Below, one piece after another: positions 1,906 to 8,026 of a stretch of 8,026 nucleotides of DNA. The notes beneath the pieces were generated by a model. The model was not told where the DNA came from, made no database searches, and worked only from the letters and a program-made list of their open reading frames with translations. Source of the DNA: a virus (taxonomy: Duplodnaviria > Heunggongvirae > Uroviricota > Caudoviricetes); IMG/VR virus record IMGVR_UViG_2654587792_000015; one strand, written 5' to 3'. The translations under genes and the position numbers were made by a program. The stretch's first letter is position 1, and every line of letters begins with the position of its first letter.

Positions 1906-2604
1906 TGCAGGATATACAGCAGGAAACACTCAATGAGTGCACTAAAACGGAGCAATCCGCGCAGCATCGTGCTCTGGGAAATCGACCTGACAGAGGTCGG
2001 CGGAGAACGTTATTTCTTCTGTAATGAGCAGAACGAAAAAGGTGAACCAGTCACCTGGCAGGGGCGACAGTATCAGCCCTATCCCATTCAGGGAAGCGGA
2101 TTTGAAATGAATGGCAAAGGCACCAGTACGCGCCCCACGCTGACGGTTTCTAACCTGTACGGTATGGTCACCGGGATGGCGGAAGACATGCAGAGTCTGG
2201 TCGGCGGAACGGTGGTCAGGCGTAAGGTTTACGCCCGTTTTCTGGATGCGGTGAACTTCGTCAACGGAAACAGTGACGCCGATCCGGAGCAGGAGGTGAT
2301 CAGCCGCTGGCGCATCGAGCAGTGCAGCGAACTGAGCGCGGTCAGTGCCTCCTTTGTACTGTCCACGCCGACGGAAACGGACGGCGCCGTTTTTCCGGGC
2401 CGCATCATGCTGGCCAACACCTGCACCTGGACCTATCGCGGTGACGAGTGCGGTTATCACGGTCCGGCGGTCGCGGATGAATATGACCAGCCGACGTCCG
2501 ATATCACGAAGGATAAATGCAGCAAATGCCTGAGCGGCTGTAAGTTCCGCAATAACGTCGGCAACTTTGGCGGCTTCCTTTCCATTAACAAACTTTCGCA
2601 GTAA
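1905..2604 (+). pseudogene. L: Phage minor tail protein L (lambda gpL-like), reading frame disrupted by an apparent 1-nt insertion near 1959-1962
   Basis: ATG 1905 (coupled to the M stop) opens frame 0: MQDIQQETLNECTKTEQSA..., which hits TAA at 2022-2024 after 39 codons. Homology continues in the +1 frame from 1963 (SIVLWEIDLTEVGGERYFFCNEQNEKGEPVTWQGRQYQPYPIQ...) to TAA at 2602-2604; the six-frame track shows only the +1 piece (1933-2604). Joining the two gives 19 + 213 = 232 aa, the length I recall for lambda gpL. Confidence 0.8.
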
Positions 2605-2609
2605 ATCCC

Positions 2610-3353
2610 ATGACACAGACAGAATCAGCGATTCTGGCGCACGCCCGGCGATGTGCGCCAGCGGAGTCGTGCGGCTTCGTGGTAAGAACGCCGGAGGGGG
2701 AAAGATATTTCCCCTGCGTGAATATCTCCGGTGAGCCGGAGGCGTATTTCCGTATGTCGCCGGAAGACTGGCTGCAGGCAGAAATGCAGGGTGAGATTGT
2801 GGCGCTGGTCCACAGCCACCCCGGTGGTCTGCCCTGGCTGAGTGAGGCCGACCGGCGGCTGCAGGTGCAGAGTGATTTGCCGTGGTGGCTGGTCTGCCGG
2901 GGGACGATTCATAAGTTCCGCTGTGTGCCGCATCTCACCGGGCGGCGCTTTGAGCACGGTGTGACGGACTGTTACACACTGTTCCGGGATGCTTATCATC
3001 TGGCGGGGATTGAGATGCCGGACTTTCATCGTGAGGATGACTGGTGGCGTAACGGCCAGAATCTCTATCTGGATAATCTGGAGGCGACGGGGCTGTATCA
3101 GGTGCCGTTGTCAGCGGCACAGCCGGGCGATGTGCTGCTGTGCTGTTTTGGTTCATCGGTGCCGAATCATGCCGCTATTTACTGCGGCGACGGCGAGCTG
3201 CTGCACCATATTCCTGAACAACTGAGCAAACGAGAGAGGTATACCGACAAATGGCAGCGACGCACACACTCCCTCTGGCGTCACCGGGCATGGCACGCAT
3301 CTGCCTTTACGGGGATTTGCAACGATTTGGCCGCCGCATCGACCTTCGTGTGA
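2610..3353 (+). CDS. K: Phage tail tip assembly protein K (lambda gpK-like), with an N-terminal MPN/JAMM-like motif and a C-terminal NlpC/P60-like region
   Basis: Uninterrupted 247-codon ORF starting 5 nt after the L stop. A JAMM-type motif H-x-H-x7-S-x2-D is present (HSHPGGLPWLSEAD, about nt 2811-2852), and candidate NlpC/P60 Cys and His lie in VTDCYTLF and PNHAAIY. The 3' end overlaps the I start by 103 nt in a different frame, as in lambda. Confidence 0.9.
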   Translation: MTQTESAILAHARRCAPAESCGFVVRTPEGERYFPCVNISGEPEAYFRMSPEDWLQAEMQGEIVALVHSHPGGLPWLSEADRRLQVQSDLPWWLVCRGTIHKFRCVPHLTGRRFEHGVTDCYTLFRDAYHLAGIEMPDFHREDDWWRNGQNLYLDNLEATGLYQVPLSAAQPGDVLLCCFGSSVPNHAAIYCGDGELLHHIPEQLSKRERYTDKWQRRTHSLWRHRAWHASAFTGICNDLAAASTFV

Positions 3354-3899
3354 AAACGGGGGCCGAAGCCATCCGGGCACTGGCCACACAGATCCCGGCG
3401 TTTCGTCAGAAACTGAACGAGGGCTGGTATCAGGTGCGCATTGCCGGGCGTGATGCAGGCGAAAACGAATTATCAGCCCGTCTTAATGAGCCGCTGAAAA
3501 ATGGTGCCGTGATCCACATCGTACCGCGTCTGGCGGGAGCAAAAAGTGGCGGTGTGTTTCAGGCGGTGCTGGGGGCGGCGCTGATTGCAGTGGCATGGTG
3601 GAACCCTGCAGGCTGGCTGGGAGCCGCGGCTGTATCGGGCATGTATGCGGCAGGGGCCAGTATGATCCTGGGCGGAGTGGCGCAGATGCTGGCACCGAAA
3701 GCCAGAACGCCCACGTACACACACAACAGATAACGGCAAACAGAACACCTATTTCTCCTCACTGGATAACATGGTTGCCCAGGGCAATGTTCTGCCTGTT
3801 CTGTACGGTGAAATGCGCGTGGGGTCACGGGTGGCTTCTCAGGAGATCAGCACGGCAGACGAAGGGGACGGTGGTCAGGTTGTGGTGATTGGTCGCTGA
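3251..3899 (+). pseudogene. I: Phage tail tip assembly protein I (lambda gpI-like), reading frame disrupted by an apparent 1-nt insertion near 3708-3713
   Basis: ATG 3251 (GAGAGAGG upstream, inside the K 3' end) opens frame 2: MAATHTLPLASPGMARICLYGDLQRFGRRIDLRVKTGAEAIRALATQ..., which terminates at TAA 3731-3733 (...KARTPTYTHNR). The conserved gpI-like C-terminus (...TTDNGKQNTYFSSLDNMVAQGNVLPVLYGEMRVGSRVASQEISTADEGDGGQVVVIGR) is in the +1 frame (frame 0) and ends at TGA 3897-3899, just before the J ribosome-binding site. The switch point is at or near the CCC run 3710-3712. Confidence 0.75.
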
Positions 3900-3917
3900 T
3901 GCAAAATGTTTTATGTG

Positions 3918-3937
3918 AAACCGCCTCAGGGCGGTTT
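3918..3937 (+). promoter_or_regulatory. Intergenic hairpin between I and J; possible weak terminator, attenuator or mRNA-stability element
   Basis: AAACCGCC (3918-3925), loop TCAG (3926-3929), GGCGGTTT (3930-3937), followed by TGTCGTTT. It lies between the I stop (3897-3899) and the J ribosome-binding site (3948-3951). Confidence 0.3.
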
Positions 3938-3959
3938 TGTCGTTTATGGAGCGTGAGGA

Positions 3960-6900
3960 ATGGGTAAAGGCAGCAGTAAGGGGCATACCCCGCGCGAAGC
4001 GAAGGACAACCTGAAGTCCACGCAGCTGCTGAGTGTGATCGATGCCATCAGCGAAGGGCCGATAGAAGGTCCGGTGGATGGATTAAAAAGCGTGCTGCTG
4101 AACAGTACGCCGGTGCTGGACACTGAGGAGAATACCAACATCTCCGGCGTCACGGTGGTGTTCCGGGCAGGTGAGCAGGAGCAGACACCGCCGGAGGGGT
4201 TTGAATCCTCCGGCTCCGAGACGGTGCTGGGTACGGAAGTGAAATATGACACGCCGATCACCCGGACCATCACGTCGGCAAACATCGACCGTCTGCGCTT
4301 TACCTTCGGTGTGCAGGCACTGGTGGAAACCACCTCAAAGGGGGACAGGAATCCGTCGGAAGTCCGCCTGCTGGTTCAGATACAGCGTAACGGTGGCTGG
4401 GTGACGGAAAAAGACATCACCATTAAGGGCAAAACCACCTCGCAGTATCTGGCCTCGGTGGTGGTGGATAACCTGCCGCCGCGCCCGTTTAATATCCGGA
4501 TGCGCAGGATGACGCCGGACAGCACCACAGACCAGCTGCAGAACAAAACGCTCTGGTCGTCATACACCGAAATCATCGATGTGAAACAGGGCTACCCGAA
4601 CACGGCACTGGTCGGCGTACAGGTGGACTCGGAGCAGTTCGGCAGCCAGCAGGTGAGCCGTAATTATCATCTGCGCGGACGCATTCTGCAGGTGCCGTCG
4701 AACTACAACCCGCAAAAACGGCACATACAGCGGTATCTGGGACGGAACGTTAAAACCGGCATACAGCAACAACCCGGCCTGGTGTCTGTGGGATATGCTG
4801 ACCCACCCGCGCTACGGCATGGGGAAACGTCTTGGTGCGGCGGATGTGGATAAATGGGCGCTGTATGTCATCGGCCAGTACTGCGACCAGTCGGTGCCGG
4901 ACGGCTTTGGCGGCACGGAGCCGCGCATCACCTGTAATGCGTACCTGACCACACAGCGCAAGGCGTGGGATGTGCTCAGTGATTTCTGCTCGGCGATGCG
5001 CTGTATGCCGGTATGGAACGGGCAGACGCTGACGTTCGTGCAGGACCGACCGTCGGATAAGGTGTGGACCTATAACCGCAGTAATGTGGTGATGCCGGAT
5101 GATGGCGCGCCGTTCCGCTACAGCTTCAGCGCCCTGAAAGACCGCCATAATGCCGTTGAGGTGAACTGGATTGACCCGAATAACGGCTGGGAGACGGCGA
5201 CAGAGCTTGTTGAAGATACGCAGGCCATTGCCCGTTACGGTCGTAACGTCACGAAGATGGATGCCTTTGGCTGTACCAGCCGGGGGCAGGCGCACCGCGC
5301 CGGGCTGTGGCTGATTAAAACAGAACTGCTGGAAACGCAGACCGTGGACTTCAGCGTGGGTGCAGAAGGGCTTCGCCATGTACCGGGCGATGTCATTGAA
5401 ATCTGTGATGATGACTATGCCGGTATCAGCACCGGCGGGCGCGTGCTGGCGGTGAACAGCCAGACCCGGACGCTGACGCTCGACCGTGAAATCACGCTGC
5501 CATCCTCCGGTACCACGCTGATAAGCCTGGTTGACGGAAGTGGCAATCCGGTCAGCGTGGAGGTTCAGTCCGTCACCGACGGCGTGAAGGTAAAAGTGAG
5601 CCGTGTTCCTGACGGTGTTGCTGAATACAGCGTGTGGGGGCTGAAGCTGCCGACGCTGCGCCAGCGCCTGTTCCGCTGCGTGAGTATCCGTGAGAACGAC
5701 GACGGCACGTATGCCATCACCGCCGTGCAGCATGTACCGGAAAAAGAAGCCATCGTGGATAACGGGGCGCACTTTGACGGCGACCAGAGCGGCACGGTGA
5801 ATGGTGTCACGCCGCCAGCGGTGCAGCACCTGACCGCAGAAGTCACCGCAGACAGTGGGGAATATCAGGTGCTGGCGCGCTGGGACACGCCGAAGGTGGT
5901 GAAGGGCGTGAGCTTCCTGCTTCGCCTGACCGTGGCAGCGGACGATGGCAGTGAGCGGCTGGTCAGCACGGCCAGGACGACGGAAACTACATACCGCTTC
6001 ACGCAACTGGCGCTGGGAAATTACAGGCTGACAGTCCGGGCGGTAAATGCGTGGGGACAGCAGGGCGATCCGGCATCGGTATCGTTCCGGATTGCCGCAC
6101 CGGCAGCACCGTCGCGGATTGAGCTGACGCCGGGCTATTTTCAGATAACCGCCACGCCGCATTTTGCGGTTTATGATCCGACGGTACAGTTTGAGTTCTG
6201 GTTCTCGGAAAAACGGATTGCTGATATCAGGCAGGTTGAAACCAGCGCGCGTTATCTTGGTACGGCGCTGTACTGGATAGCCGCCAGTATCAATATCAAA
6301 CCGGGCCATGATTATTATTTTTACGTTCGCAGTGTGAACACCGTTGGCAAATCGGCATTCGTGGAGGCTGTCGGTCGGGCGAGCGATGATGCGGAAGGTT
6401 ACCTGGATTTTTTCAAAGGAGAAATCGGGAAAACACATCTGGCCCAGGAGCTGTGGACGCAGATTGATAACGGTCAGCTTGCGCCGGACCTGGCTGAAAT
6501 CAGGACGTCCATTACGAATGTCAGCAATGAAATCACGCAGACCGTCAATAAAAAACTGGAAGACCAGAGTGCGGCAATCCAGCAGATACAGAAAGTTCAG
6601 GTTGATACAAATAATAACCTGAACAGCATGTGGGCCGTGAAACTGCAGCAGATGCAGGACGGACGCCTTTATATTGCGGGTATCGGAGCCGGTATTGAGA
6701 ATACGCCAGCAGGTATGCAGAGTCAGGTGCTTCTGGCTGCTGACCGGATTGCGATGATTAATCCTGCGAATGGCAACACAAAGCCGATGTTTGTTGGTCA
6801 GGGCGATCAGATATTCATGAACGAAGTGTTCCTGAAATACCTGACGGCTCCCACCATTACCAGCGGCGGTAATCCTCCGGCATTTTCCCTGACACCGGAC

Positions 6901-7440
6901 GGGCGGCTGACGGCGAAAAATGCCGATATCAGCGGTAACGTGAATGCGAACTCCGGGACGCTCAACAACGTCACGATTAACGAAAACTGTCGGGTTCTGG
7001 GAAAACTGTCCGCCAACCAGATTGAAGGCGATCTCGTTAAAACAGTGGGCAAAGCTTTCCCCCGGGACTCCCGTGCACCGGAGCGGTGGCCATCAGGGAC
7101 CATTACCGTCAGGGTTTATGACGATCAGCCGTTTGACCGGCAAATTGTTATTCCGGCGGTGGCATTCAGTGGCGCTAAGCATGAGAGAGAGCATACTGAT
7201 ATTTACTCCTCATGCCGTCTGATAGTGCGGAAAAACGGTGCTGAAATTTATAACCGTACCGCGCTGGATAATACGCTGATTTACAGTGGTGTTATTGATA
7301 TGCCTGCCGGTCACGGTCACATGACGCTGGAGTTTTCGGTGTCAGCATGGCTGGTAAATAACTGGTATCCCACAGCAAGTATCAGCGATTTGCTGGTTGT
7401 GGTGATGAAGAAAGCCACCGCAGGCATCAGTATCAGCTGA
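3960..7440 (+). pseudogene. J: Phage host-specificity / central tail fibre protein J (lambda gpJ-like), reading frame disrupted by an apparent 1-nt insertion at the A5 run 4714-4718
   Basis: ATG 3960 with GGAG at 3948-3951 (8-nt spacer). Frame 0 reads MGKGSSKGHTPREAKDNLKSTQLLSVIDAISEGPIEGPVDGLKSVLLNSTPVLD..., which I recognise as the gpJ N-terminus. After ...SNYNPQ (about 4715) frame 0 degenerates and stops at 4851-4853, while the gpJ-like sequence continues in the +1 frame from about 4720 ([39 protein letters not shown]...) uninterrupted to TGA 7438-7440. Removing one nucleotide in 4713-4719 yields a single ORF of about 1159 codons. Confidence 0.85.
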
Positions 7441-7458
7441 ATTTTATAACCCATATAC

Positions 7459-7483
7459 GGGCGCCAGAAATGGCGCCTTTTTT
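7459..7483 (+). terminator. Rho-independent terminator downstream of J
   Basis: Stem GGCGCC (7460-7465), loop AGAAAT (7466-7471), stem GGCGCC (7472-7477), followed directly by TTTTTT (7478-7483). It lies 19 nt after the J stop and before the lom-like ribosome-binding site. Confidence 0.65.
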
Positions 7484-7507
7484 ATTGCAGAAAAGCGAGA
7501 GGTAATT

Positions 7508-8026
7508 ATGCGTAAAGTTTGTGCAGCCATTTTGTCCGCAGCCATCTGTCTGTCCGTATCCGGTGCGCCTGCATGGGCGTCTGAACATCAGTCCACACTG
7601 AGCGCGGGGTATCTTCATGCCCGTACGAACGCTCCCGGCAGCGATAATCTGAACGGGATTAACGTGAAATACCGTTATGAGTTTACGGACGCGCTGGGGC
7701 TGATTACGTCCTTCAGTTATGCCAATGCTGAGGATGAGCAAAAAACGCACTACAGCGATACCCGCTGGCATGAAGATTCCGTGCGTAACCGCTGGTTCAG
7801 CGTGATGGCGGGGCCGTCTGTGCGCGTGAATGAATGGTTCAGCGCGTATGCGATGGTGGGTGTGGCTTACAGCCGTGTGTCGACTTTCTCCGGGGATTAT
7901 CTCCGCGTAACTGACAACAAGGGGAAAACGCACGATGTGCTGACCGGAAGTGATGACGGTCGCCACAGCAACACCTCTCTGGCGTGGGGAGCTGGCGTGC
8001 AGTTTAACCCGACCGAATCCGTGGCC
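7508..8026 (+). CDS. lom: Lom-like outer membrane protein (Ail/Lom/PagC/OmpX family), 5' part; the 3' end lies beyond the window
   Basis: ATG 7508 preceded by GAGAGG (7497-7502). The frame is open to the end of the window (173 codons): MRKVCAAILSAAICLSVSGAPAWA-SEHQ... The N-terminus is a typical signal peptide with an A-x-A cleavage site; GINVKYRYEF and the alternating aromatic/hydrophobic strands are characteristic of the Lom/Ail beta-barrel family. It occupies the position immediately downstream of J, as lom does in lambda. It is absent from the ORF track because no stop occurs within the window. Confidence 0.8.
   Translation, partial: MRKVCAAILSAAICLSVSGAPAWASEHQSTLSAGYLHARTNAPGSDNLNGINVKYRYEFTDALGLITSFSYANAEDEQKTHYSDTRWHEDSVRNRWFSVMAGPSVRVNEWFSAYAMVGVAYSRVSTFSGDYLRVTDNKGKTHDVLTGSDDGRHSNTSLAWGAGVQFNPTESVA

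Follow-up and report, generated by a model that had tools for sequence, protein, structure and literature searches.

The split of tail-tip gene J in a lambdoid prophage contig is best explained as an assembly artefact from co-resident prophage copies

Introduction

Is gene J of this lambdoid prophage broken, or does its split into two reading frames stem from the way the sequence was put together? The question is raised by a stretch of 8,026 nucleotides (the window) that is an entire draft contig, JHTM01000182.1 of assembly GCA_001506145.1, and that carries a lambdoid tail module (3' part of H, then M-L-K-I-J and the start of lom) with 94-97% nucleotide identity to annotated relatives and phage lambda. 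A first-pass annotation of this DNA took J to be disrupted by an extra base in a run of five A's and concluded that no adsorption-competent tail could come from the locus, rightly adding that a real lesion would be refuted by an error of sequencing or assembly. Our comparisons with related contigs, complete genomes and phage collections lead us to put at roughly 0.88 the probability that the gene is not broken and the frameshift is an assembly or consensus artefact to which at least two co-resident prophage copies contributed.

Results

All features of the window lie on the + strand. At the contig edge, positions 1-94 form the right end of an IS66-family (ISEc22-like) element which abuts the tape-measure gene; they match panel locus L004 (5837-5931) with 0 mismatches and 1 gap, just beyond the 3' end of an annotated ISEc22 transposase pseudogene (L004 4355-5894). 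The junction between IS and H at position 95 is also present in a sister contig, L130 (JHRS01000262.1; 8025 nt), which has an adjacent WGS prefix and shares both of its ends with the window. The IS-truncated 3' part of H (95-1571; PF06120, PF09718), part of a stretch (1-1962) identical to L130, is followed by the minor tail genes M (1549-1905; PF05939) and L (1905-2604), by gene K for a JAB/NlpC-P60 peptidase (2610-3353; intact by gene call, relatives and Pfam), by the tail assembly gene I (3350-3899) and by J (3960-7440), after which the 5' part of lom (7508-8026), a gene for an Ail/Lom outer-membrane protein, runs off the contig end. The contig is bounded by repeats, the IS end on one side and lom on the other.

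As deposited, J is made up of two overlapping ORFs, 3960-4853 (297 aa) and 4795-7440 (881 aa), in place of the one uninterrupted ORF of ~1132-1159 codons that belongs to a gpJ gene. From ATG to stop it measures 3481 nt, as opposed to 3480 nt in intact 1159-aa relatives, and the removal of any one base within 4714-4724 regains a 1159-codon ORF. Pfam assigns FNIII-A_GpJ to the first piece and Phage-tail_3, Ig_J, Ig_J_second, Phage_Tail_Tip and Ig_GpJ_C to the second, and this full gpJ domain set is carried by a single protein in L130. Length and the division of domains over the two pieces therefore identify the split as a +1 insertion that is real in the given sequence. Length, Pfam and base deletion agree with the first-pass reading of 3960-7440 as one lambda-type J carried through two frames by one extra base, and the 45-residue out-of-frame tail of the first ORF is exactly as it had been quoted (it ends WCGGCG). 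Both the domain set and the position in the order H-M-L-K-I-J-lom, judged from relatives and gene calls, place the locus in the gpJ family.

Which base is extra depends on the allele used for comparison. The frameshift site (4703-4724) starts from C4703, within the 22-nt allele CTACAACCCGCAAAAACGGCAC, and contains both G4720 and C4724. Closest among intact alleles are those of L001 (FDAARGOS_1059), O111:H2 strain 12A, L082 and the sister contig. L001 and L130 read ...CCGGAAAAAC-GCACATAC..., AAAAA included, with the peptide EKRTY (in codons, CCG GAA AAA CGC ACA TAC for PEKRTY). Relative to this L001-type allele, the extra base belongs to the GG pair at 4720-4721 (G4720), and there are three substitutions besides. 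Compared with lambda-type alleles (...CAGACGCGGCA-ATAC...; codons CAG ACG CGG CAA TAC for QTRQY) it is C4724, again together with at least three substitutions. Deletion of G4720, of C4724 or of one A each reopens 1159 codons, yet only the first two yield a natural-like peptide: without G4720 the frame reads KRTY, as in the L001-type allele, and without one A it reads NYNPQNGTY, which matches no natural allele. The 125 J proteins at hand have YNPQTRQY (123) or YDPEKRTY (2) at the site and no other peptide; an intact YNPQKR.Y allele is absent among them. So while the A5 run does lie at 4714-4718 as first annotated, it is not the mutated element: the closest intact alleles have the identical five A's, which rules out slippage in this run and places the extra base outside it.

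Two further lesions accompany that in J. Gene L has a +1 lesion at 1963-1966 (the called ORF, 1933-2604, encodes 223 aa instead of 232) and gene I another at ~3713 (the called ORF stops at 3733); neither these nor the IS end at 1-94 had been mentioned in the first-pass annotation. Deleting base 1965 gives back a 232-aa L and deleting base 3713 a full-length I. Both lesions lie outside homopolymers and, like that in J, each comes with a small cluster of substitutions when compared with intact relatives. At site 1, in L, the window's GCGCAGCATCGTG is a mix of the natural alleles GCGCTG-ATCGTG and GC-CAGCGTGGTG, and at site 2, in I, it mixes A-type (ACTCCC-CGTACACAGACAACG) and B-type (ACGCCCACGGCAGCCAGTACA) alleles of the gene. 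With two natural alleles at each of these sites, the window has the column-wise alphabetical minimum (A<C<G<T), and the same holds for site 3, in J. Here nine columns distinguish the lambda-type from the L001-type allele, and two of the nine form a compensated indel pair (CGGCA-ATAC versus C-GCACATAC). In 9/9 columns the window carries the alphabetical minimum and, at both indel columns, a base and not a gap, which makes a net +1. The resulting blended 24-mer, CCGCAAAAACGGCACATACAGCGG, has the two natural counterparts CCGGAAAAACGCACATACAGCGG and CCGCAGACGCGGCAATACAGCGG. What is found at sites 1-3 is what collapsed paralogues should leave behind, namely column-wise mixes of alleles in which both inserted bases are kept and none is private to the window.

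The same order governs a much longer stretch. The window is identical to L130 over 1-1962 and 5989-7974, and nearly all of the 120 differing positions and 10 gap columns between these blocks fall inside 1963-5988. L130 has L (232 aa), I (183 aa) and J (1159 aa) all intact. Over 3101-5800 the window carries the alphabetically lower base at 75/75 substitutions (p=5e-23), distributed over A/G (25), C/T (25), G/T (10), A/C (6), A/T (5) and C/G (4) with 0 in the reverse direction, whereas control pairs from outside the JH* records (three complete-genome or lambda loci and the DEC12B draft contig) are lower at 42-51%. The differences are not unbiased in direction, as those of a genuine pseudogene would be; in all six substitution classes variant columns follow a fixed rule that is independent of biology, as is expected of collapsed paralogues. 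No mutational or recombinational process orders bases alphabetically over both transition and four transversion types. Against natural sequences the window is lower at 61-73% of differences and L130 at only 30-43%, and compared with L001 the differences private to the window are all lower (about 15) and those private to L130 all higher (about 13), by our own tally from the difference tracks. The GenBank record of L130 was deposited in reverse orientation, and its bias is opposite to the window's, because the alphabetically first base on the opposite strand is the last on this one. In our reading of these sequences, the window and L130 would both be consensus blends made under one orientation-dependent letter rule. 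Of the window-versus-L130 variant bases in 1963-5800, 114/114 occur in natural sequences and 0 are private, so the window's differences represent no new mutations. Two intervals, 2101-2300 and 5801-5988, do not obey the direction rule; there the window and L130 seem to be built on different backbones. The NCBI protein of the sister record (P0061) is without X and equals the translation of L130, which suggests that, for this record, the letters were settled before deposition. A downstream conversion of IUPAC codes is accordingly unlikely for the sister record, and the extra bases are not encodable by IUPAC in any case.

We also looked for parental sequences that would yield the window. A single crossover in the GCA between the two indels would call for a donor, CAAAAACGGCAATAC, that was not found in IMG/VR, among GTDB representatives or in the 125 J proteins, and it would leave at least five switches unexplained. 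Neither does one second parent N, for which min(L130, N) equals the window, do justice to the data: the best candidates, L131 (DEC12B) and L006, leave 14-20 violations and explain 16-22/77 columns, L131 accounting for 16/77 only. As no single panel sequence serves as second parent throughout, one has to suppose either that the copies number more than two or that one of them is missing from the panel. When mosaic segments were counted globally (greedy exact-match cover with ~125 loci), the window needed 59 and the intact sister 56, so that with this panel the count does not discriminate.

The frameshift allele is confined to three contigs in two assemblies with adjacent WGS accession prefixes, and the exact 297-aa and 881-aa products occur in this contig only. 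None of 5,426 complete E. coli genomes contains the 22-nt allele; there the best match over 81 nt reaches 95.1%, and each of the matches listed falls one base short of the window at the site. The allele is likewise absent from metagenome contigs and GTDB representative genomes, and in IMG/VR it recurs nowhere beyond L006 and L007 (two contigs, one genome). L006 is JHSO01000129.1 of GCA_001266005.1, and the adjoining prefixes JHSO and JHTM suggest the same submission batch; in no independently produced related genome did we find the lesion. The two contigs differ in background, L006 being DEC12B-like (lambda-type) and L007 L001-like, so that their assembly has two J contigs, one per allele background. 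The blended patch is nonetheless identical and extends over 373 nt in L006 and 129 nt in L007. Both JHSO contigs are held in forward orientation and bear the directional signature: L007 is lower than L130 at 39/41 positions (L007 3658-5072) and L006, compared with L131, is lower or has a base over a gap in 14/14 cases around the frameshift. Moreover, L007 has one more base-over-gap frameshift downstream. For comparison, E. coli genomes have a median of 2 places with J and up to 14.

Discussion

Our findings that the window follows the alphabet over 3101-5800, that three sites are blends of natural alleles and that the frameshift allele is limited to two assemblies with adjacent prefixes are consistent with the following scenario. 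The middle of the contig (~1963-5800), comprising L, K, I and the first two thirds of J, would be a composite consensus of two or more lambdoid prophage copies and thus represent no single real haplotype. Wherever the copies disagree, the alphabetically first base (A<C<G<T) would have been written in the contig's own orientation, and a base in one copy facing a gap in the other would have been written as the base. At three places, where 1-nt indels come in compensated pairs a few bases apart, both extra bases would then have been kept with a net gain of one, and the J split at 4720-4724 would be one of these, the underlying J alleles each being in frame. The cause may be sought in the assembly pipeline, at a step of consensus calling, tie-breaking or polishing; the strain probably carries both allele types, in at least two J-bearing prophages with in-frame alleles. 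At least one assembler offers consensus options of the kind 'conflict resolution = vote (A,T,C,G)', in which ties may be broken in a fixed letter order, and an option of this kind could conceivably bear on the present assembly. A search of the literature on the WGS accession prefixes, for platform and assembler, found nothing, and we know of no description of the fingerprint seen here (an orientation-dependent alphabetical minimum with a union of insertions) nor of a named assembler tied to it.

That J is a genuine +1 frameshift pseudogene seems unlikely to us, albeit less so than other alternatives. Such a reading sees a prophage killed by the IS66-family insertion in H, with real frameshifts acquired afterwards in L, I and J, and has gene conversion pass the J lesion on between co-resident prophages. 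It draws on the IS end that abuts H at 95, a junction common to the sister contig, on the recurrence of the J lesion in three contigs of two assemblies, on the fact that a long-homopolymer miscount underlies none of the lesions at the three sites, and on the J fragments and other J frameshifts that are common in public assemblies. What it does not account for is why the lesion should sit inside a stretch with 75/75 alphabetical bias and why each lesion should bring 1-3 extra substitutions that all go toward the second natural allele and all to the lower letter. Site 3 as a recombinant would need at least five switches within 22 nt, L, I and J are intact in the sister contig with the same IS junction, and 5,426 complete genomes are without the allele. 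A related option, namely that the +1 allele is real and a surviving evolutionary intermediate between the lambda-type (CGGCA-ATAC, TRQY) and the L001-type (C-GCACATAC, KRTY), strikes us as rather improbable. If true, it would imply that J alleles cross a non-functional frameshifted state in defective prophages and are then repaired and recirculated.

Very improbable, to our minds, is a simple miscount in which five A's were called for four. Deletion of one A would indeed open the frame, and J of DEC12B (L131) is split nearby by short-homopolymer deletions; however, AAAAA is also found in the intact L001, L130 and L082, it is removal of G4720 and not of an A that restores a natural peptide, and of the two further +1 lesions in the contig neither lies in a homopolymer. 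Hardly credible at all is the idea that J consists of two genuine genes, or that programmed ribosomal frameshifting lets it be expressed from both frames. The first-pass annotation had proposed that homologues split at the same point would indicate two real genes, and same-split homologues do exist in L006 and L007. But these come from the adjacent-prefix assembly and bear the same artefact signature, one of them with a further frameshift, and so they are no evidence for such an arrangement. Each J gene inspected in complete genomes and phages (L001-L004, lambda) is one continuous ORF, and these collections yielded no +1 allele, the matches listed being one base shorter. An internal Met codon is all that the second ORF offers by way of a start, and neither the site nor the two-frame layout is conserved among homologues.

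The preferred reading, a consensus artefact from several prophage copies, has loose ends of its own. L130 shows the substitution bias but no frameshifts, which counts against a blend unless indels were handled differently in both assemblies, and an IS in the tape-measure gene makes real decay downstream unsurprising. Together with the second parent, the gaps in the direction rule and the mosaic count, the indels of L130 and the IS in H are imperfect fits, and for these we leave a small share of the probability to a genuine pseudogene.

As for known systems, the locus shares the gene order H-M-L-K-I-J-lom, the Pfam set and 94-99% nucleotide identity with phage lambda J (gpJ, 1132 aa) and with a 1159-aa lambdoid gpJ (WP_000515345.1, NZ_CP068041), whose length it equals once one base is removed; it differs from them in that the deposited gene lies in two frames and in that no complete genome and no phage record contains the 4703-4724 allele. 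In itself the gene is an ordinary representative of lambda gpJ/TipJ, and the lambdoid tail module around it is equally unremarkable. Defective lambdoid prophages with IS insertions and frameshifted tail genes are familiar from EHEC and EPEC, as in the prophage pool of O157 Sakai. Our case resembles them in its IS-interrupted tape-measure gene, its lambdoid tail module and its probable setting in an E. coli genome with several similar prophages, but differs from them in that the lesions in L, I and J behave unlike real mutations. It is closer to collapsed-repeat or chimeric errors of short-read assembly, with which it has in common a multi-copy target, a repeat-bounded contig, variant columns settled according to a fixed rule and spurious indels at the points of greatest divergence between copies. 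Peculiar to it, in comparison with such errors, is the orientation-dependent alphabetical minimum combined with a union of insertions.

The split is thus best explained as an assembly or consensus artefact and, as such, constitutes no real biological feature. The first-pass view that a broken J leaves the locus without an adsorption-competent tail lacks support if, as we propose, ~1963-5800 is a blend of prophage copies and not a real haplotype. With no good evidence of a broken J in the strain, the lesion says nothing on adsorption or on the viability of the prophage. Its use may lie in data quality: differences to a close relative that are all lower, that reverse in contigs of the other orientation and that go along with spurious +1 insertions at compensated indels make up a simple, checkable fingerprint which flags blended paralogues in public draft assemblies. 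In assemblies of this kind, pseudogene counts in multi-copy prophage genes would be inflated.

Natural alleles and +1 lesions in the tail module

At the site where J (the tail-tip, host-specificity gene) is split in the window, two natural and intact allele types can be told apart, and what separates them is two 1-nt indels, 4 nt apart, that compensate each other (window 4713-4724 compared with 4654-4664 of L001, the closest intact allele type, and with lambda). One type reads CGG CAA TAC (RQY) and the other CGC ACA TAC (RTY), and this double-indel difference is a real polymorphism, present in complete genomes.

J is not the only window gene to carry a +1 lesion. In gene I, the lesion is accompanied by three nearby substitutions (window 3709-3728) and brings the reading to a stop at 3733 rather than at 3899; column by column, the whole stretch is a mixture of two natural alleles of I. 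In gene L, the lesion (window 1963-1966) forms the exact left boundary of the region in which the window differs from its sister contig, L130 (JHRS01000262.1), and the ORF called there (1933-2604) is L without its true first 20 codons. Gene L also holds a hypervariable patch (window 2112-2163), where the window has the lambda-type allele. L130 has a different natural type there, in which indels compensate one another, and between these two sequences the alphabetical rule, by which the lower base (A<C<G<T) would be kept wherever prophage copies disagree, does not hold in this patch.

L130 itself looks intact and its ORFs are open. Its positions 3103-5802, read on this strand, are however skewed towards bases that come later in the alphabet (only 30-43% lower in comparisons with natural sequences), and the record is stored in reverse orientation. 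Given this bias and the reversed record, L130, despite its open ORFs, is probably a blended consensus, too.

Other broken copies of J and flanking sequences

In public assemblies, J fragments with frameshifts near the window's J site are seen repeatedly. In L007, one of two contigs from another assembly with the same J +1 allele, J comes in three pieces (3821-4798, 4656-5474, 5392-7302) because of a further extra G at L007 5397 (window 5535), a case of base-over-gap when compared with L001 and L130. J is likewise broken in a draft contig of E. coli DEC12B (AIHB01000056.1), which leaves a fragment plus an ORF of 881 aa. The cause differs from that in the window: on a lambda-type allele, three short homopolymers within some 35 nt (482-513) have suffered deletions of 1 nt. 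A lambda-type J fragment from a Logan assembly (P0020, 208 aa) has a different frameshift, about 40 nt downstream of the window's J site (...GIWDGTFKPKIQQQHGLVSV...).

Between the I stop and the J start of the window (3918-3945), a G+C-rich hairpin with the sequence aaccgcc tca ggcggtt runs into T's and looks like a terminator. In L006 (JHSO01000129.1, positions 1-426), the companion contig of L007, gene I does not precede J; what stands there instead looks like the end of an IS and the short, AT-rich tail of an ORF, so that this prophage seems to be a remnant. The window, for its part, opens with the right end of an ISEc22-like, IS66-family element (1-94), and in comparison with the ISEc22 copy of the related L004 it shows a gap of 1 nt. 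Tape-measure gene H adjoins this end at 95, a junction common to the window and L130, and because the IS66-family right end abuts it, H is truncated or interrupted.
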